A stretch of DNA of 64,000 nt from a virus, in IMG/VR virus record IMGVR_UViG_3300044878_000082, positions 32,001-96,000 of that record. One strand, 5' to 3'. A model generated the notes under the pieces. It ran no database searches. It saw only the letters and a list, made by a program, of their open reading frames with translations, and was not told where the DNA came from. The position numbers and the translations under genes are program-made. Positions 1,996 to 58,660 of this stretch are shown piece by piece (the first letter of the stretch is position 1; every line of letters begins with the position of its first letter).

Positions 1996-2646
1996 TTGGA
2001 GAGTTTTACCGTGGACGAGATTCAAGTAGAGATCGCAGAAGAGAAGGAAGTACTGTTTCACGATCTGGACGTACTGTTGCGTTTAGCGCTAGTGCGCAAG
2101 TTCCATGGCAAAGCTAACAAGCGTGCCGTCAAGGAAATGGTCAAAGAGCTGTGGGACCGTACCCAACCGGTCGTACAGCAAGGCGTCCTGAGAGGGATGA
2201 TGTACATGAAGACCGATGAACTGGATCGTAATCTGAACTGGTTCATCTCGGACTACCTGTATTACTCGGTACCCGCTACACAGTTGGGTGCTCAAGGTTA
2301 CGACGGTTACGCTATCCACCAGAAGGTAGTGTACCCAGTAGAGATCTGGTACGAGACTGAAGACGACTACCATTGGGCTCGTAAGAACCAGTCTGAACTC
2401 TGGACTGGGGTTTGCCGTGACCTGCTCTACGAATTCCGTGATGCTCCTCGTGCTGAGGGTGAACCACGTAAAGCCACAGCCGAAGTGTTGCTGTTCCAGA
2501 ACCGTGGCTACAACGGCTTGATCAAACACTGGGGCGTTGAGATGAACGACGATCTACCTTTCTACCTGAATGGGTTGGTGGCTGAAGATCGTAGCGCAAC
2601 CGTACATCGCATCGGTCCTAAAACACTTAAAGGGGGTCAGCAATGA
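1996..2646 (+). CDS. hypothetical protein
   Basis: 216-aa ORF coupled to DHFR by an ATGA overlap; start uncertain. Confidence 0.75.
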   Translation: MESFTVDEIQVEIAEEKEVLFHDLDVLLRLALVRKFHGKANKRAVKEMVKELWDRTQPVVQQGVLRGMMYMKTDELDRNLNWFISDYLYYSVPATQLGAQGYDGYAIHQKVVYPVEIWYETEDDYHWARKNQSELWTGVCRDLLYEFRDAPRAEGEPRKATAEVLLFQNRGYNGLIKHWGVEMNDDLPFYLNGLVAEDRSATVHRIGPKTLKGGQQ

Positions 2647-3239
2647 GTGCTGAAGTTGAAGTTGTTAAAGTTGGTCTGATTGCTGCTGTTGAAGCAAACT
2701 GGGGAATTGGGCTTAAAGGGGGAATGCCTTGGCATAACCCGCGCGAGCTGCGTCACTTCAAAACAGTAACCATGGACCGTGTGTTGATTATCGGTAGCCG
2801 CACTGCGGACAGCCTGATCAACCTCCAAGGGGATTTCGAAGGCAAGGTTTACTCGCCTGAGGAGAACATTGTTCTCAAAGGGCGTAAGATCATTGTCGTG
2901 ACCAGTAAGGAGCATGTTCGAGATTACGTCCGACTGGGATTGTATGTCGAGCGTAGTCTGGAAGAAGCCATTGCTAAAGCCAGAGAGCTTGAACCAGACG
3001 TCACCAAGTGCGTGTACATCGCCGGCGGTGGGAAGCTATATAAAGAAGCGTTGGACAAAGACCTGGTCGACAGTATGTTGATCTCGTTCATTGTCGATGG
3101 ACACTCCTGTGACACGGTGTTCCCTGAATTCGATAAGTCGAAATGGGATTGCCACTTCATGGGAGATGAAGGCACTTTTACCGTTGAACTGTATATCAAA
3201 AGGAAAGACTCAAATGAGCCTGCTCTCTACTCGTCGTGA
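2643..3239 (+). CDS. folA: dihydrofolate reductase
   Basis: LIAAVEANWGIGLKGGMPWH, ELRHFKTVT, IIGSRTADSL, LKGRKIIVVT, YIAGGGKLY and CDTVFPEFD match DHFR motifs. Confidence 0.93.
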   Translation: MSAEVEVVKVGLIAAVEANWGIGLKGGMPWHNPRELRHFKTVTMDRVLIIGSRTADSLINLQGDFEGKVYSPEENIVLKGRKIIVVTSKEHVRDYVRLGLYVERSLEEAIAKARELEPDVTKCVYIAGGGKLYKEALDKDLVDSMLISFIVDGHSCDTVFPEFDKSKWDCHFMGDEGTFTVELYIKRKDSNEPALYSS

Positions 3240-3612
3240 AGTTGCTGTCCCGGTGGGCATTGACACCGAGGCATTCAATCCTGAGAAACCCCACGTAGCC
3301 GTTAAGAAGGCTTCCGGCGGGTTCGTCTACTTCAACATCCTGTTCAAGACCCTGGGTCTGATTGACCAAATGTTCACTCCGCGTGAACTCAAAGACCGAA
3401 AGAAAGTCTCGTTGGACGTACTGAACGATCCGACCTTGGTCAAAGCCTTGCAACCTTACGGCAACCCAATGGCAATCCACAAGAAACGCGAAGGCCTGCT
3501 GGATTCCTCCAAGCCTGGCAACGTGATTCCATGGAAGCGTCTCTACCTACAAGAGTACCACATCGGTGATCAGGTGTTCTACGCACCTACCACACCGACC
3601 ACGGTGCATTAA
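3214..3612 (+). CDS. hypothetical protein
   Basis: AGGA SD before ATG 3214; ends just before a terminator. Confidence 0.7.
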   Translation: MSLLSTRREVAVPVGIDTEAFNPEKPHVAVKKASGGFVYFNILFKTLGLIDQMFTPRELKDRKKVSLDVLNDPTLVKALQPYGNPMAIHKKREGLLDSSKPGNVIPWKRLYLQEYHIGDQVFYAPTTPTTVH

Positions 3613-3621
3613 GGGGAAGGG

Positions 3622-3656
3622 AAAGAATGGGGGCTTCGGTCCCCTTCTTTTTTTTT
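3622..3656 (+). terminator. intrinsic terminator
   Basis: GGGGGC-TTCG-GTCCCC hairpin followed by a long T tract. Confidence 0.85.
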
Positions 3657-3704
3657 GGCCTACTCTATGACATTATGATCTTTTTGCTAGGGTGGGTAAA
3701 GGGA

Positions 3705-3935
3705 ATGAACTTGATTGTGATCGCGTTGATGTATGGATTGCTCCTGTACGTGGTTCTGGGAGGCTTTCTGTTGACAGTCTGTACTGACTATCCAGAGTTC
3801 CTCAAACGCTACCGCTTGGACCTCATGCAGGTCTACGGACAGAACTACCTGAAGACAGTACTAGTGCTGCTCTACTGGTACGTCATCGGGATCGCAATCT
3901 GGTGGTACTGGGTCATCAAGCACCGTTCGGAATAG
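3705..3935 (+). CDS. small membrane protein (two predicted TM helices)
   Basis: two hydrophobic stretches (LIVIALMYGLLLYVVLGGFLLTV; VLVLLYWYVIGIAIWWYWVI). Confidence 0.65.
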   Translation: MNLIVIALMYGLLLYVVLGGFLLTVCTDYPEFLKRYRLDLMQVYGQNYLKTVLVLLYWYVIGIAIWWYWVIKHRSE

Positions 3936-4016
3936 CCTGTAAACATAACTGGGAACTTCGGTTCCCTTTTATGCCGTCACGATATGAGGGATGTCCCTCT
4001 CGTAAGGAGTACCGTG

Positions 4017-4511
4017 ATGGCTGACATTGTTAGTTTCAGAAAGTTTGATGCGGAGCTGATGGTGGCCTACGACACCAAGGCCAGTAAGCTCCTAGGGAAA
4101 GACTACTGGCGCGTCCAGAAAGGCTTCCACTACTACCTCGGTGAGAAGGGGTCTAACCGTTGGGTGTTCATCCCTGCGGGTTACTTGACCGATGGTGCTT
4201 CGGTACCACAGATCTTCTGGTCGGTGATCCCACAATGGGGTGCGTACGGACAAGCCGCTGTAGTCCACGACTACCTGTGTGAATACCTGTCGATCACCGT
4301 CGACGGCAAACCACAGAGCATCACCCGCTCAGAGGCCGATGACATCCTCTTGGAGGCGATGCGTGTTCTGGAGGTACCTGAGTTCACCGCGCAGACGATC
4401 GAGGCTGCTGTGGACTTCTACCGCGTTATAACGCAAACCTCAACACCAAGCAACAAACCGTTGAAACGTCAACTCGAAGCTGAGTGGGCGAAAGGGGAAT
4501 TGACGGTTTAA
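4017..4511 (+). CDS. DUF1353-family phage protein
   Basis: IPAGYLTDGASVP...W...YGQAAVVHDYLC...RSEADDILLEAM signature; TAAGGAG SD. Confidence 0.85.
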   Translation: MADIVSFRKFDAELMVAYDTKASKLLGKDYWRVQKGFHYYLGEKGSNRWVFIPAGYLTDGASVPQIFWSVIPQWGAYGQAAVVHDYLCEYLSITVDGKPQSITRSEADDILLEAMRVLEVPEFTAQTIEAAVDFYRVITQTSTPSNKPLKRQLEAEWAKGELTV

Positions 4512-4651
4512 CCTACCTATTAGATGACGGGTTGCCAAAAGGCACATCGCCCGGTGGAGCCTCAAACATAATCTGGCCCACACCAACACTTAACACAGCA
4601 CCACATGTATCTCCACAAGTTTTTGTGTCATCACCTAAAGGAGTATCTGCG

Positions 4652-5038
4652 ATGGCTACAATTAAAGCTGCGGTGGAGTGTAGGGAAGCATTGAATTTCT
4701 TACCAGACACCAAAATCTACCTGATCACGGATGTGAAGGATAACTTGCCTCAATCGCACATTGGGTACTTTACCTATGGTACGAAAGCTGGGTTCACAAC
4801 CCAGAAGCAACGTTTCTACATGGAAGTCGGCGGGGACTCACACTCCTCGTGTCAGCATAAAGAAATTGATTTCATCGCCTCGTTCGGCGCGTACCTTGAG
4901 CGTAAGTTTAAGGAATGTGGTGTTCAAGTCTTCGAAGTTAACCTTCCTAAGTCTCACGGTTACAGTGGTAACACTTACGGGTACTTCACCACCCTGCGGC
5001 TGTTCCCACACGCTGGTATTAAAAAGCAAGCGGCATAA
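4652..5038 (+). CDS. hypothetical protein
   Basis: AAGGAG SD before ATG 4652. Confidence 0.7.
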   Translation: MATIKAAVECREALNFLPDTKIYLITDVKDNLPQSHIGYFTYGTKAGFTTQKQRFYMEVGGDSHSSCQHKEIDFIASFGAYLERKFKECGVQVFEVNLPKSHGYSGNTYGYFTTLRLFPHAGIKKQAA

Positions 5039-5096
5039 TACTGTGACTGCTCTAGTAGCCCTCCGAAGAAGGCTACTAGAGCATTAGGGCTTTTAT

Positions 5097-5630
5097 GCCC
5101 CTTGGCCACAGGAACAGCGGTTGTGGAGACATGTGTGATTATCTCATACTATCATTGTTCAGGTATGGGAGTGAATTTGCAGGCTTGGCAACAGACGACT
5201 CGAACCCGAAAAGAAATTCCTTAAGTGCTACTCTGTGAAGGTCTACGACTCTACCGACAAAGCTAAACAACTTAGGGGTTAGCTCACAACACCACTGTCG
5301 CACTAACTGAACGTTCAACGGATGACAAAACCGATACATGGTAATCGCGTTTGTTACCGATGGAACTTCTTGTGAGGGCAAAACAGAGAAACCCGATTGG
5401 GTCAGTGGATGGATTGATTGAGTGTAACACCTAGTACCATTACGAGACACCACACCAATACCCCCTTCCGTGGGTTTTGGCACGTTGGTTCTCGTGCGAC
5501 TGCTTTCCATTGGTACTTCCCTTTTAAGATTATTGTTGCTATTAAGAACGTGCATCATTGCTCGTTCATTACATCTATCAGTTCTGTAAGACTTTACTTC
5601 TGCCGGGAGTATACCGGTGGATGTAGAATT
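5097..5630 (+). ncRNA. candidate large structured non-coding RNA
   Basis: no convincing + strand ORF; many helices of 6-10 bp with G-U pairs that work on the + strand; begins at a TATG motif. Folded by eye only. Confidence 0.4.
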
Positions 5631-5640
5631 AAACATATTA

Positions 5641-5670
5641 CAGACCTATATTACCTAGTTGAATAGGATA
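5641..5670 (+). promoter_or_regulatory. phiKZ-type early promoter (TATATTAC, extended)
   Basis: TATATTAC at 5647-5654 inside CAGAnnTATATTACnnnnnTGAATAGGATA, also found at 58631-58660. Confidence 0.8.
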
Positions 5671-5704
5671 ACCTCTTCAATCCATCTACTAATGCTGGTG
5701 CATT

Positions 5705-5968
5705 ATGGCAAAGACAAAAGCAGCACAATGGGTAACTCTGACTGAGAGCGACCATCATACCACCTCGGCTTGTTCCGCTGGCTTTGGCGCACTGGTGAAG
5801 AACCAGAGCTTCGAGCAGCGTAAGATCGACGGTATGAACATCACGGTGCAGGTTAGCGAAAGTATGACCTACGTGCCGAACGTGCTGGTTGAGCAAAACA
5901 ACAACGGCTGGGTTCTGACCCCGCACTTCCCCGGTCACACCGGTACACGCAAAGCTCTAAACATCTAA
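5705..5968 (+). CDS. hypothetical early protein
   Basis: first ORF downstream of the early promoter. Confidence 0.7.
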   Translation: MAKTKAAQWVTLTESDHHTTSACSAGFGALVKNQSFEQRKIDGMNITVQVSESMTYVPNVLVEQNNNGWVLTPHFPGHTGTRKALNI

Positions 5969-5997
5969 TCACATCCCTCCTAAGTAAGGAAAAGAAA

Positions 5998-6345
5998 ATG
6001 GCACCTGTAACTACCTCCGGCTTGGCTGACTTCGTAAACCGCTGCATCACCCGTCGTCTGGAAATCAACCTGCGGCTGGAATGTCACAAAGACATCGTGG
6101 TCGAGTTCACCCGGACAGAGCTTCGTGAGAAGCACACCAAGGGCGATCGCATCAAGGACGTCTCCATCGAGCGCATGATCAAAGGTCTGCGCGCTTACGG
6201 CTACGAAGTCAAGGGCGAGCCGAACTCCGAGAACTTCCGCGTCACCTTCAACGTTGAACGTTATCTCTCCCAAGCATTCAGCTTGGAAGAGCTGAACGAC
6301 TCCTCCGACTACCTGGCAACCATCTTGGTTAAAGACGAGGAGTAA
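5998..6345 (+). CDS. hypothetical early protein
   Basis: TAAGGA SD; operon context. Confidence 0.75.
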   Translation: MAPVTTSGLADFVNRCITRRLEINLRLECHKDIVVEFTRTELREKHTKGDRIKDVSIERMIKGLRAYGYEVKGEPNSENFRVTFNVERYLSQAFSLEELNDSSDYLATILVKDEE

Positions 6346-6348
6346 GCC

Positions 6349-6660
6349 ATGGCCGATCTACCTGATGACGAACTGACACACGACGTGATGTTGGCCGAAA
6401 TCCAAAAGATGGCCAAACGCAGTGTGACCATTACGATCAACGAGCACCTCGATGAGAACCAAACCATCGAAGAGGCTGTAGACCGCATGGTGGCCTCTGG
6501 GTTGATTGATGATGACCAAGCGCCTGAGTACATCGCCTCAGGTACGATCGTTCAACTCACGGCCAATGGCGAGACCGAAGAAGAGACCATTGACATCATT
6601 GGGCCAACGCTCAACGATGCCATCGGTAATATGTACTTCTACTTGAAAGCCGAAGAGTAA
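6349..6660 (+). CDS. hypothetical acidic early protein
   Basis: GAGGAG SD; D/E-rich 103-aa protein. Confidence 0.75.
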   Translation: MADLPDDELTHDVMLAEIQKMAKRSVTITINEHLDENQTIEEAVDRMVASGLIDDDQAPEYIASGTIVQLTANGETEEETIDIIGPTLNDAIGNMYFYLKAEE

Positions 6661-6733: not shown

Positions 6734-8278
6734 TTAAGCGGCTTCTTGGGTTTCCCACCAAACGTTTGCACTGCCACCCTCAGTTTCAGGGCGACCACCA
6801 ACCTTACGCATCGAACGGTCTGCACCGTTAATGTCGTCAGGGATGCTACCAATCTTCTCGAACTTCAGTACAGTGAACAGATCCTTCTCAGGAGTGATCG
6901 AAATCTTACGGTGCTTACCGCGCATACAAGTCAGGTAAGACTCACCTTGGAACTTCTCAATGTGAATCGAGATCTCCATGTCCACTTCTTGGTCTACGGT
7001 ACGGCACGAGTCGTAGTAGCCTTTGTTAGCAATCTCTTGCACGAAGTTTTCAATCTGCGAACGAACCAGTTCTTTAGCCTGAGTCGAAAGCTGATGCGGG
7101 GTAATGAACGTGATGCCGCGAGGAGCAGTGAAGTTACGCACACGACGGAACAAGTCACGAGTCTCGAAACCGTGTGGGCCTTGCTGACAACCACGCTTGG
7201 ACAACATGTTGAGGTAGTCGAGTACACAGAAGTGGACTTCGTAACCCTCGGATTCGTATTTCTGAACCAGGTCGAACAGGTCACGGTAGCCGAACAGGGA
7301 TGGGTCAACCCGCAACATACGGACGTGGTACCCATTCTCCATCAGACGACGCTTAACGTACGCAGAGGCCTCAGTAGTGTCCACCCCACGGATAGATACT
7401 GCTTGACCGGTTTCGTTCTCTTTAAGCGACACGTAGAGCTGCATAACGTTGTCGATCAAGTTGTTCTCGGCGGAGACGTGCAGTGCCAGAGGTTTCTTGA
7501 GCGGATCACGCAGGTACGGTTTGTTATAGATGCACATCTGTTTAAACAAGCTGAGGGTGAAGCCTGTTTTAAAGTTGTGTTGCAGTGCACCGAGCAGAAC
7601 GAACTCCCCACGACGGAAGCCACCCTGATCACCACACATTCTATTAATAGCCTGCCAGCCCGTACGAAGCACGCCATCAGCCGACAGTTCATCCTGGGCC
7701 TGTTCCATCAACGCCATGACCGCATCGTCGTCATTGATGTCTACAGAGCCTACAATGGCCGGGTTGGACTCAATGGTCTGCACCGTAGCCAAAGGTTCCA
7801 AGTCACCGATGACATCTTTAACGAAGTTCTTCCAGTCGATGGTGTGTGGATTGAACAGAGCCTTCTGAGACGCTTGCTTGAAAATCTCAGTGATCTGGTT
7901 CTGGTTCAGGTACGCTTGTAGCTCAGAACGGTACTCGAGCACCATGCGCTTGATGAGGTTGAGGTCACTGACATCCTCAGTAGCCCCTTCGAACGCTTGG
8001 TATAGACTGTCCTCGTCCGCTACGTTTACACGTATTCTTTGAAGTAGGATAGTCCTATCGTAATCCTGGTTGACCGGGTTACCAGCCATCCACATCGCTG
8101 TAGCCCGAAGACCCACCAGAGTCTCACGACCACGGTCTGTCTCCATCGAGGTTTCTGGGATACGAATACTGGCCACAATCTGACCGACCAGTTCGGCAGA
8201 GTTCGCTGTCCGGTTGTCCAGTTGACTTTCCCGATACAGGAGAGTGATCACCTGTACCAACAGTAGTTTATAATCCAT
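6734..8278 (-). CDS. dnaB: DnaB-like replicative helicase (phiKZ gp118-like)
   Basis: LRTGWQAINRMCG...GGFRRGEFVLLGALQHNFKT (Walker A variant), VLDYLNML (Walker B), ITPHQLS, RGKHR; lies next to the capsid gene as in phiKZ-like phages. Confidence 0.9.
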   Translation of the reverse strand: MDYKLLLVQVITLLYRESQLDNRTANSAELVGQIVASIRIPETSMETDRGRETLVGLRATAMWMAGNPVNQDYDRTILLQRIRVNVADEDSLYQAFEGATEDVSDLNLIKRMVLEYRSELQAYLNQNQITEIFKQASQKALFNPHTIDWKNFVKDVIGDLEPLATVQTIESNPAIVGSVDINDDDAVMALMEQAQDELSADGVLRTGWQAINRMCGDQGGFRRGEFVLLGALQHNFKTGFTLSLFKQMCIYNKPYLRDPLKKPLALHVSAENNLIDNVMQLYVSLKENETGQAVSIRGVDTTEASAYVKRRLMENGYHVRMLRVDPSLFGYRDLFDLVQKYESEGYEVHFCVLDYLNMLSKRGCQQGPHGFETRDLFRRVRNFTAPRGITFITPHQLSTQAKELVRSQIENFVQEIANKGYYDSCRTVDQEVDMEISIHIEKFQGESYLTCMRGKHRKISITPEKDLFTVLKFEKIGSIPDDINGADRSMRKVGGRPETEGGSANVWWETQEAA

Positions 8279-8307
8279 TTCTCTGATACCCAGCCCGGAG
8301 TGTTTAA

Positions 8308-8838
8308 ATGAAAGTAATCTTGGTACCCCAGTGGCTGAAGAAAGCACTGGAACACGCTAATCTGAATTTGTCAACGGTTGCGGATCTCAAAACCTTGACG
8401 ACTATACTATCGACCGAGGACGTAGCTAAATACCTACTGCTCAATGAGGACCGTGCTACTTACCTCACCAAGGGTATCGCTTCGAGCTTCGACGGTATCA
8501 GTCTGTACGGTTCTGATAGTGGCGTTGCATCAGATAAGTTAGACAAAATTGCCAATCAGTTACAGTACCTGAGAATCAAGGACAAGCCTACTTTGGAGGA
8601 GGCTTGGATCGGTCGTGATGTCGCCGAAGCGTCTGGCTACAGCCTCACAGCACAACTGGTTGGTAGCGATACGTTAATTATTACACCTATCTTAGGACAA
8701 GCTGCCGCAGACGCAAAAGCTGATGCCGCTCGGTTCATGGACCAATTGATTGGCCTGTGGATCTCAGTCTCGTCTCTAGAGCTGGTTGCTACCACTCCGA
8801 TTTTCAAAGAGTATTTGAGCCTCGTTAAGAGTGTTTAA
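8308..8838 (+). CDS. hypothetical protein (phiKZ gp119 position)
   Basis: 176-aa ORF between helicase and major capsid protein. Confidence 0.7.
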   Translation: MKVILVPQWLKKALEHANLNLSTVADLKTLTTILSTEDVAKYLLLNEDRATYLTKGIASSFDGISLYGSDSGVASDKLDKIANQLQYLRIKDKPTLEEAWIGRDVAEASGYSLTAQLVGSDTLIITPILGQAAADAKADAARFMDQLIGLWISVSSLELVATTPIFKEYLSLVKSV

Positions 8839-11375: not shown

Positions 11376-11400
11376 CAAGTGTATATTATCAAAGTGTACT
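11376..11400 (+). promoter_or_regulatory. probable early promoter variant (TATATTAT)
   Basis: TATATTAT at 11382-11389 with TG five nt downstream, as in the two full copies; lies upstream of the nvRNAP-subunit operon. Confidence 0.55.
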
Positions 11401-31179: not shown

Positions 31180-32796
31180 TCAGTAGGTGAACCAGACATC
31201 ACCTACAGCACCCCAGGCGCCGTTAGGGTCAGCCGTGGAGATCAGGAGGGCACGTTTACCCATGGTGCCGACTTGGTTATACGCAGCAGCCAAGATCGAC
31301 GCAGTGGTGTTACCTTCCAGTGCAGCAGCGTTCACTGCGGTACCGTTAGCAGGCAGACGCAGACCCACGAGATAGTTCACGTCAGCCACCGTATACGCAC
31401 CCACCATCGCAGCGGTTGTCCCGTGTGGGTTACCGGATACAATCTTGGCGTGAGCATCCATAGCAGCAGTCTGGAACGCAATGGCCTGAGCAGTGAGCAA
31501 CGGCGTCATGTACTTGGTGTTGATCGTGCCCGCTTGTGCTTCAGCAGTCGATGCTACACCGTAGTCCAACACGTTACCCAACCCTACTTGCGCCTTGGTA
31601 GTTGCGTGCGGGTTGTTGGTGTTGGTGATGTGGTTGTTCAACGGAACCAAGGCTTGTTGAGCAATCGCCTGAGCAGTCCGCAGTGGAGTCATATACTTCA
31701 GGTTCGAAGTACCGGCCTCCGCTTCAGCTTGCACCGCGAGATCGTAGTTCTGCACGCTACCGAGTCCCACTTGCGCTTTAGTCGTGTTGTGGGGGTTGGT
31801 CTGGTCGTTGATGTGCGTGTTCAGCGGCACGACTGCTTGAGCCGTAATCGCTTGCTTCGTGGTCAACGGCGTGAGGTAACGATCGGAACGAGTCCCTGCT
31901 TCCGCTTCAGCTTGGGTGGCTGGCTGGTAGTTTTCTACCAAGCTCAGACCAACCTGTGCTTTAGTCGTAGCGTGAGGGTTCGTCTTGTCCGCGATGTGTG
32001 CGTTGAGTGGTGCCAGTGCTTGAGTGGCGATCGCTTGTGCTGTGAGCAGCGGAGTCATGTACTTATTGTTAACAGTACCGGCCTGTGCTTCAGCAGTGGT
32101 AGCAATCGCGTAGTTCTGTACCAACCCCAAGCCTACTTGCGCCTGCGTTACCGCGTGCGGGTTAGCCTTGTTGTTCTCGTGCGCTTCGAAGTCAGCCCGT
32201 TGCTCAGTGATCTGTGCTTGGAGCAAACCGTCCTGGTAGTTGATGAACTGACGCAATTCATCGTGAGCAGCTTCGTCGCCGATCAGGATAGCGTTACGCA
32301 GTGCATCCAACGCTTCCACGAGGTATTCGAAACCGTACAGGTCACCGATGTCGTGGAGGTGAGGAGCAGGAGGGAAAGCGGTGGGTTTACCGAGAATGGA
32401 ACCCCACTCCACTGCACGCTCGTCGATGTCGAGGTTCTCGATCATCTTCGCCAAGGCCGAAGCCGAGGTACTGAACACACCACCAACTACTTGGTAAGTG
32501 AACAGCAAGCTATCCCGGACAGCAGGATCAGTGACCACAACGACGGCACAAATCTCTTTGTCCATCGCCAGTGTGGCATCTTGTTGCAGTTGTGCTGCGA
32601 TGTAGTGAACACCCTTGGTGAGCACCCGACCGGTCGCCGCCTCAGTGACAATCATCGACTCTGTGAAGTAAGAGCCGTAGTTGGGAACGAATGCCCGGTT
32701 ACGAGCAGGTCCCAAGTCATGAGGTTCGTTGATGACCAGGTTGTTCGGGTTGATCCCGGTAGGGTCTTCTGGGTACTTGAGAATGATTGTGCCCAT
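31180..32796 (-). CDS. tail fibre protein with NPH repeats (phiKZ gp146-like)
   Basis: YPEDPTGINPNN N-terminus; four ~59-aa HxxxxxNPHxxTKAQVGLGxVxNY...KYMTPL repeats; ends GDVWFTY. Confidence 0.85.
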   Translation of the reverse strand: MGTIILKYPEDPTGINPNNLVINEPHDLGPARNRAFVPNYGSYFTESMIVTEAATGRVLTKGVHYIAAQLQQDATLAMDKEICAVVVVTDPAVRDSLLFTYQVVGGVFSTSASALAKMIENLDIDERAVEWGSILGKPTAFPPAPHLHDIGDLYGFEYLVEALDALRNAILIGDEAAHDELRQFINYQDGLLQAQITEQRADFEAHENNKANPHAVTQAQVGLGLVQNYAIATTAEAQAGTVNNKYMTPLLTAQAIATQALAPLNAHIADKTNPHATTKAQVGLSLVENYQPATQAEAEAGTRSDRYLTPLTTKQAITAQAVVPLNTHINDQTNPHNTTKAQVGLGSVQNYDLAVQAEAEAGTSNLKYMTPLRTAQAIAQQALVPLNNHITNTNNPHATTKAQVGLGNVLDYGVASTAEAQAGTINTKYMTPLLTAQAIAFQTAAMDAHAKIVSGNPHGTTAAMVGAYTVADVNYLVGLRLPANGTAVNAAALEGNTTASILAAAYNQVGTMGKRALLISTADPNGAWGAVGDVWFTY

Positions 32797-58630: not shown

Positions 58631-58660
58631 CAGATATATATTACTCCAGTGAATAGGATA
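58631..58660 (+). promoter_or_regulatory. phiKZ-type early promoter (TATATTAC, extended)
   Basis: CAGATATATATTACTCCAGTGAATAGGATA; matches 5641-5670. Confidence 0.8.

Follow-up and report, generated by a model that had tools for sequence, protein, structure and literature searches.

The DNA analysed here, referred to as the window, is a stretch of 64,000 nucleotides (nt) covering positions 32,001 to 96,000 of IMG/VR record IMGVR_UViG_3300044878_000082. It is part of a 113-kb contig of a phiKZ-like jumbo phage. Two plus-strand genes of the window, P0001 (4652-5038, 128 residues) and P0002 (5705-5968), are separated by a gap of 666 nt (5039-5704). Codon usage is not coding-like in any frame of this gap, in line with an earlier note on the same DNA that had pointed to a large stretch without a convincing gene. 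The gap contains the element described in this study. Its core, at about 5041-5570, would consist of a strong terminator-type hairpin, at least five more conserved helices or hairpins and invariant unpaired blocks. On the minus strand, an open reading frame (ORF) of 123 codons, hereafter the minus ORF, spans most of this structure (5139-5510, with the ATG at 5510-5508 and the stop at 5141-5139). The gene for the DnaB helicase (6734-8347, minus strand), 1.1 kb from the element, encodes a protein that shares about 50% identity with its counterparts in Xanthomonas phage RTH11, Ralstonia phage RP12 and Erwinia RAY-like phages. We interpret the element as a single-copy, RNA-level element of a new family in one uncultured phiKZ-like lineage, probably transcribed from the minus strand, with a frame that stays open and a peptide that is not constrained. 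We estimate the probability of this reading at about 0.55.

A search of IMG/VR and of metagenomes with the flanking proteins as queries retrieved 12 homologous loci. Together with the window, the 13 sequences form three clades: clade A (the window, L003, L004, L108 and L005), clade B (L007, L110 and L111) and clade C (L106, L115, L112, L107 and L105). The alignment is made up of these 13 sequences; the intermediate relatives P0005-P0013 and P0016-P0018 are not among them. Every locus that has a P0001 homologue plus downstream sequence also has a homologous region of about 650 nt, which is detected by nhmmer with E values from 1e-249 to 1e-70, even where P0001 itself is at only 62% identity. 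The gene order DHFR, DUF1353, P0001, element, P0002, two small ORFs, DnaB is kept across the homologous loci. In one clade A locus (L005:4385-5400), the element is present and the P0002 homologue is missing downstream. Thus, the element is not tied to P0002.

Clades with 31-48% identity between their accessory proteins can be aligned over the full length of the element; neighbouring proteins in general are 31-66% identical between clades A and C. As judged from these alignments, the element is better conserved than most neighbouring accessory proteins. Invariant unpaired blocks lie between the helices, and long invariant blocks such as 5085-5127 are conserved regardless of reading frame. Within the minus ORF, the proportion of synonymous differences (pS) is 0.09-0.23, as compared to 0.22-0.72 in all neighbours. 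The divergence is therefore 2-4 times below that of the synonymous sites of every neighbouring gene. This would not be expected of a functionless spacer made of a terminator, filler and a promoter, in which the apparent structure only reflects shared ancestry. Such a spacer would account for the insignificant single-sequence folding scores given below and for the consensus-fold 'covariation' that also arises in coding controls. It would account neither for the low divergence, nor for the end-to-end alignment between distant clades, nor for the out-of-sample pairing, which exceeds the control. We regard it as hardly credible.

Folded individually, the sequence of the element does not stand out. 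The minimum free energy (MFE) of the plus strand is -148.3 kcal/mol, as compared to -143.7 +/- 6.4 kcal/mol in dinucleotide shuffles (z = -0.72), and the minus strand gives z = -0.16. The earlier note had described the region as dense in helices and had chosen the folding z-score beforehand as a test that could refute its proposal. The density is not above chance and the score is insignificant. Since the helices of one sequence are at chance level and most of the pairings listed in the note are not conserved, support for a structure has to come from the comparative data.

These data were evaluated in several ways. RNAalifold run on the 13 sequences proposes 78 pairs, 21 of which show changes on both sides. 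With the structure held fixed, 99% of the cells of the 52 pairs of the 5' domain are paired, versus 91.6% after shuffling (0 of 500 shuffles reach the observed value) and 32-46% after sliding the partners; 13 pairs are doubly changed, versus at most 4 with partners slid. For the 35 pairs of the 3' domain, the corresponding values are 91%, 82% and 32-43%, with 12 doubly changed pairs versus at most 4. Shuffle and slide controls favour a structure drawn from the same alignment. Therefore, a coding control (a 530-nt stretch of coding sequence located upstream in these genomes, taken through the same pipeline) and an out-of-sample test were added. The consensus MFE is -81 kcal/mol for the element versus -49 and -37 kcal/mol for the coding control, and the structure conservation index (SCI) is 0.47 versus 0.32 and 0.24. 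In the out-of-sample test, helices were predicted from one clade alone and scored in another. Doubly changed pairs were still canonical in 112 of 171 cases on the plus strand and in 120 of 178 on the minus strand (65-67%). The coding control gave 37/86 and 53/106 (43-50%), chance being about 0.44. The ratio of doubly to singly changed pairs was 0.76 in the element and 0.28 in the coding control. In addition, the same hairpins emerge from single-sequence MFE folds made separately for each clade. By this comparison, the element contains helices that are kept through compensatory changes, as is characteristic of structured RNA.

The helices are described below from the 5' to the 3' side of the plus strand, without assignment to a strand unless stated. 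H1 (5041-5045/5107-5111) closes a three-way junction around H2 and H3. It shows a U-A to C-G change in clade C within otherwise invariant blocks, and it is predicted independently in every clade. H2 (5048-5063/5068-5083) is a 15-bp terminator-type hairpin with four doubly changed pairs and all cells paired; its loop reads C(UUCG)G on the minus strand. H3 (5087-5100, plus strand) has GGGC and GCCC around TTTTAT; it is invariant, hence without covariation evidence. H4 (5114-5126/5284-5298) is a long-range helix of 11 pairs with one compensatory G-C to C-G change. It competes with the local pairing 5106-11/5121-26 listed in the earlier note, which thus becomes one of two mutually exclusive pairings; the alternatives to it, H1 and H4, have one compensatory change each. 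H5 (5162-64/5204-06 and 5169-80/5188-5201) is an irregular hairpin, predicted independently in each clade, with five doubly changed pairs and up to three pair types.

Three small hairpins follow. The first (5240-5250) has 4 bp and a 3-nt loop, with two doubly changed pairs, for example GGUC/GACU versus GCCC/GGGC. In the second (5328-30/5350-52 and 5332-35/5344-47), the pair 5330/5350 changes from A-U to G-C, and 5332/5347 from C-G to U-A in L111; the apical part is replaced in clade C and alternative registers exist. The third (5391-5402) has 4 bp of the ACCC/GGGU type. Its pair 5391/5402 is A-U in five sequences, U-G in five and C-G in three, and one more pair of this hairpin is doubly changed.

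A long branched hairpin occupies 5434-5516. Its outer stem (5434-39/5511-16) is invariant, and four pairs of its inner stems (5442-48/5489-95 and 5450-51/5487-88) are doubly changed. The apical 4-bp stem differs per clade (ACCC/GGGU, CCAG/CUGG, GCCA/UGGC or CACC/GGUG). The apical loop has UUCC or CUCC, and a small side hairpin is found near 5496-5503. The next hairpin (5546-5567) has a conserved AUCAU loop on a stem that reads GAACG/CGUUC in clade A, GAGU/ACUC in clade B and GAG+GCGAU/AUCGC+CUC in clade C; its pair 5549/5564 is represented by four pair types. Finally, segment 5571-5633 is variable. It includes a clade A-only hairpin at about 5598-5622; the segment is deleted in clade B, differs in sequence in clade C and stays unpaired in L005.

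The best-supported parts of this predicted structure are H2, H5, the hairpins at 5434-5516 and 5546-5567 and the three small hairpins (5240-50, 5328-52 and 5391-5402). Among the helices proposed by the earlier note, the stem 5434-39/5511-16 with its inner hairpin and the hairpin 5546-67 are recovered in the 13 homologues. Most others are not: 5142-50/5162-70, 5173-78/5214-19, 5231-36/5383-88, 5261-66/5279-84, 5283-89/5370-76 and 5340-45/5353-58 are not part of the consensus fold, and the 10-bp stem 5570-79/5616-25 falls in the variable segment.

The boundaries of the element carry two recurrent sequence signals. The first is an 11-nt tag, (G/C)CTTTTATGCC, with 8 sites in the window versus 0.45 expected, always just after a GC-rich hairpin. 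Sites that follow terminator hairpins are at 3965, 5089, 11344, 17920 (minus strand), 17961, 30274 and 58598. The plus-strand tag TATGCC (5094-5099) of the element is held within H3. On the minus strand, GGCATAA (5032-5038), the complement of the TTATGCC tag, falls on the final Ala codon of P0001 and on its stop. It is present at the end of P0001 in all homologues, where the gene always ends as G-GCA-TAA (Ala-stop) though the residues just before vary. H2 is thus tagged on both sides (5032 and 5094), with TTTTATGCC after the hairpin on the plus strand and TATTATGCC on the minus strand. At junctions between two plus-strand genes in the window, the tag is found on the plus side only (5 of 5). 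The other two-sided hairpins (17920/17966 and 27922/27954) are all at junctions of convergent genes, so the two-sided tag on H2 hints at a minus-strand transcript. The sequence of H2 (5048-5083) is that of an intrinsic terminator, being GC-rich, covarying and provided with a U-rich tract, like the other gene ends of the genome. The tag has the look of a signal for termination or processing, specific to this phage, and not of a promoter.

The second signal is a promoter-like block, CAGA..TATATTAC...AG.TGAATAGGATA, at 5641-5670 on the plus strand. It is located ahead of P0002 and is nearly invariant in the 13 homologues. A second copy precedes a plus-strand gene at 58631-58660, and a weaker one is found near 11376-11400; the copies follow terminators. 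Scans of the window for sigma-70 promoters and for terminators gave matches at chance level.

The earlier note proposed a plus-strand transcript, from G-U pairs and from a TATG motif at 5094-5097 taken as a late start site. In that case, the element would be a plus-strand non-coding RNA (ncRNA) of about 530 nt, either started by the late polymerase at the TATG or processed from read-through of P0001, and the minus ORF would be accidental. The neighbouring genes from 2643 to 6660 are all on the plus strand, and the element begins 3 nt past the stop of P0001, to which it is always linked. Five G-U pairs work only on the plus strand (5240/5250, 5391/5402, 5439/5511, 5126/5284 and 5121/5289), and the 3' domain folds better there (-20.5 versus -14.8 kcal/mol). 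Contigs of relatives about 85-95% alike, retrieved from Logan, also join P0001 and the region; they come from RNA-labelled libraries annotated as wastewater, 'whole organism', 'organism A' and 'liver'. Three of the runs (X19, X22 and X24), from small RNA-labelled 'whole organism', 'organism A' and 'liver' libraries, gave contigs within window positions 4600-6000 at a k-mer depth of 6-12. These contigs could reflect contamination or an unexpectedly abundant transcript.

Other observations do not fit such a plus-strand RNA. The TATG is indeed present, but it belongs to the tag, and TATGCC follows terminators on both strands at convergent junctions, a terminator-like rather than a promoter-like behaviour. 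A start at 5097 is incompatible with the spanning helix 5041-45/5107-11, which includes the covarying pair 5042/5110. A-C cells, which become G-U on the minus strand, are equally numerous at helix positions. Folding energies of the 5' domain (-74 versus -60 kcal/mol) and of the H1-H3 block (-49.2 versus -40.3 kcal/mol) favour the minus strand, and H2 shows on that strand both the C(UUCG)G loop and a G-U pair. Hence, G-U pairs do not establish the plus strand. A plus-strand ncRNA also leaves unexplained that the minus frame is open in every lineage and that its indels preserve the frame. We consider this explanation unlikely. As regards the strand itself, the maintained reading frame points to the minus one, toward which we lean slightly; transcription of the element from the plus strand appears a little short of an even chance.

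The behaviour of the minus ORF is the second unusual property of the element. The frame is open in all 13 sequences, with 123 codons in clade A, 141 in clade B and 122-124 in clade C, its length being constant within a clade. Shine-Dalgarno-like purine runs are found 6-11 nt ahead of the ATG in each clade. Between clades B and C, seven of seven indels within the ORF are multiples of three (9, 3, 6, 3, 3 and two 3-nt indels specific to L106). In clade A, indels of 5+1 and 2+5 nt occur, the frame being restored within 59 and 28 nt. Indels outside the ORF measure 8, 2, 1 and 37 nt. When the substitutions between clades B and C are permuted, the ORF stays open in 7-11% of trials. Moreover, a profile search in 1.8 billion representatives found three more clusters at 50% identity, with ORFs of 119-127 residues, all of the same lineage. 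We could not find a homologue outside this lineage in that search; two leucine-rich repeat proteins of low complexity (P0019 and P0020) were rejected as spurious profile matches.

The encoded peptide does not evolve as a protein. The ratio of nonsynonymous to synonymous rates (dN/dS) is 0.63-1.10 for the minus ORF, as compared to 0.02-0.08 for P0001. Substitutions fall evenly on the three codon positions in every clade and segment, with counts of 23/15/18 and 43/40/47, as compared to, for example, 7/9/48 in P0001. Amino-acid identity in the frame is not above that of the other five frames. A log-odds score of codon usage, trained on 20 long genes of the window (mean +0.43), ranges for the minus ORF from -0.18 in the window to -0.29 across the three clades, like its own off-frames; seven small neighbouring genes score +0.29 to +0.60, with negative off-frames. 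GC content at third codon positions (GC3) is 0.42-0.48 in all clades, as in non-coding frames. The AlphaFold model, calculated from the 13-sequence alignment, has a predicted local distance difference test score (pLDDT) of 46 and a predicted template modelling score of 0.26, and no Pfam or PHROG match was found. Clade A differs in frame from clades B and C exactly over H5 (5158-5216) and over 5403-5432, where nucleotides and pairing are conserved. Furthermore, the last 23 codons of the frame in clades B and C have counterparts in clade A that lie past its stop and show the same invariance. Thus, the minus frame is open and its indels preserve it while the peptide drifts, a pattern indicating that the frame is selected and the peptide is not.

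Nevertheless, the minus ORF could be an ordinary gene for a small accessory protein (122-141 residues) that evolves fast, the hairpins then serving mRNA stability or translation control, or being partly due to chance. Such a gene would account directly for the open frame in all homologues and in the three further clusters, for the frame-preserving indels and the clade-specific lengths, for the purine runs ahead of the ATG and for a terminator with a minus-strand tag directly past the stop. The proportion of nonsynonymous differences (pN, 0.09-0.18) is in the range of the neighbouring accessory genes, and clades B and C show a weak excess of third-position changes. Against such a gene stand the dN/dS values, the non-coding codon usage and GC3 in all clades, the identity no higher than in other frames, the frame difference over conserved nucleotides, the conservation beyond the clade A stop, the poor model and the lack of a family match or of a homologue outside the lineage. 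We regard this explanation as improbable. The earlier note had held that a conserved and translated minus ORF would refute its proposal. The ORF is conserved in that it is open and in frame in all homologues; its evolution is not protein-like.

Another explanation places the function in the DNA near the helicase gene, which could, for instance, start replication (as an origin or a single-strand initiation site) or bind proteins, with hairpins formed in single-stranded DNA. The conserved synteny with DnaB, the long invariant blocks (5085-5127) irrespective of frame and the strand-symmetric pairing signal would fit this idea. However, a search of the phage's own genome with the element returned only the self match and a hairpin, with no iterons or repeats. 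In addition, the helices tolerate cells of the G-U type, signals of the terminator and promoter type flank the element, and the maintained reading frame would have no explanation. A DNA-level element thus appears a remote prospect.

Several points weigh against the RNA-level reading that we prefer. Single-sequence folding is insignificant on both strands. The coding control also yields doubly changed pairs, 6 and 14 as compared to 21 in the element, so that the excess is real but moderate. There are three clades only, hence few independent events, and the long-range helices H1 and H4 are each supported by one compensatory change. Counts of G-U and A-C cells, consensus energy and SCI are split between the strands, and the contigs from RNA libraries reveal neither strand nor transcript ends and might derive from DNA. 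Maintenance of the frame equally fits a real, fast-evolving protein, and the invariant blocks could act as DNA.

With these points taken into account, the comparative data support an RNA-level element in phiKZ-like phages that measures about 530 nt, is conserved and keeps its base pairs. The inference of the earlier note, a possibly undescribed large jumbo-phage ncRNA, was thus largely right, for reasons other than its single-sequence helices; the term 'non-coding' does not apply cleanly. In the mechanism that we propose, selection would act on nucleotides and on pairing, not on the peptide. A minus-strand transcript of about 530-600 nt, convergent with P0001, would end at the two-sided terminator 5048-5083. 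Ribosomes probably read the frame of 122-141 codons, because it is kept open while the peptide drifts. The RNA fold would be the functional product, with loops and unpaired blocks as binding surfaces, and the benefit of translation would lie in what it does to the RNA, such as protection or remodelling, and not in a useful protein. A stronger version, which we put forward as a speculation with the odds clearly against it, is that the element represents a new class of phage RNA, with a functional fold and an obligatory transit of ribosomes, a frame of about 125-140 codons being kept in register and the peptide ignored.

We compared the element with known RNA families. Scanning the whole window against Rfam with cmscan gave nothing at the gathering threshold, be it for GOLLD, ROOL, tmRNA, RNase P, group I and II introns, OLE or any other family, in agreement with the earlier note, which could not match the region to the RNA families it considered. 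At E values up to 10, positions 4900-5800 gave chance matches only, with E > 4 (TD-2, bxd_4 and MIR6217); at E values up to 1, nothing was found within the element in the clade B and C homologues. The large phage RNAs ROOL (RF03087) and GOLLD (RF01998) resemble the element in measuring several hundred nt, in being found in phage genomes and in having many conserved helices and unpaired blocks, and in that no protein partner or function is known from sequence. The element differs from them by the lack of a cmscan match at E up to 10, by its position away from tRNA genes (none are found in the window), by its insignificant z-score, by its frame-conserved ORF and by its restriction, so far, to one lineage.

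Dual-function RNAs such as RNAIII/hld, SgrS/SgrT and SR1/SR1P combine a conserved fold and a translated frame in one transcript. In these cases, the ORF is short, the peptide is conserved and the fold is largely outside the ORF. Here, by contrast, most of the structure lies within the frame, and the peptide is free of constraint. The template ncRNA of DRT2 carries a stop-free 'neo' ORF, for which the absence of stops and a length modulo 3 are selected, and needs an adjacent reverse transcriptase. A DRT2-like template RNA was rejected for the element: the reverse transcriptase domain PF00078 is absent from three genomes of the lineage (G000, G001 and the complete G002), control genomes being positive, and there is no repeat or junction signature. 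Spurious conserved ORFs are also found in rRNA genes, where they are open since the sequence hardly changes, and gene callers predict them. The element differs in that about 37% of the minus ORF columns vary between clades, with seven of seven indels still being multiples of three.

In phages of the Chimalliviridae type, small RNAs, some of them intergenic, were reported by differential RNA sequencing of phiKZ (PMC8244752) and by ONT-cappable-seq of 201phi2-1 (PMC11512511). Those of 201phi2-1 were picked from transcription units shorter than 250 bp and derive mostly from 5' untranslated regions (PMC11512511). In the literature that we searched on phiKZ-type phages, the RNAs described are all small, and a structured one of about 500 nt is not among them. 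Non-coding RNAs of phiKZ receive only a passing mention in a 2026 review, and phages are not mentioned in a recent preprint that maps prokaryotic non-coding sequence.

The distribution of the element was also searched with nucleotide and protein probes. A covariance model built on its most conserved block (R1) found exactly one copy per genome in three genomes, one of which is complete (243.7 kb), and had no match in Xanthomonas phage RTH11. A stretch of 783 unannotated nt near the DnaB gene of RTH11 (L117:2185-2967; OQ790161.1, 177705-178487) was considered as a counterpart and rejected, as neither nhmmer nor R1 detects similarity to the element. In 50,697 records of cultured phages, blastn with the region and with its most conserved block and tblastn with P0001 and the minus ORF returned nothing meaningful. 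A profile search of genome contigs with P0001 gave nothing. Two DNA patterns gave, respectively, three chance loci only (L009, L011 and L012, for GTGAAGGTCTAYGACTCT) and about 90 matches that are mostly chance (for TTGGCCACAGGAACA). The lineage has so far been found among jumbo phages from soil, rhizosphere and wastewater.

P0001 is always located immediately upstream of the element and has no assigned family. It has no Pfam, PHROG or PDB match. Its AlphaFold model (pLDDT 62.6) retrieved nothing from the PDB at E <= 0.1 and did not hint at an RNA-binding or RNA-processing fold. One P0001 homologue, P0012, comes from a 241.7-kb contig that NCBI lists under a Streptomyces isolate. The size of this contig suggests a whole jumbo-phage genome within a bacterial assembly.

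Functional study of phiKZ-type phages has so far centred on proteins, and the element suggests that an RNA plays a part in this lineage. Its frame has already been annotated as a hypothetical protein by gene callers, which calls for caution with such annotations. The unusual combination of covarying helices, strongly constrained 'synonymous' sites, a frame that is kept and a peptide that is free offers a concrete instance in which to ask if translation can ever be selected to benefit an RNA. If the transit of ribosomes were indeed obligatory, translation could, for example, serve to time or unfold the RNA, to protect it or to localise it outside the phage nucleus.

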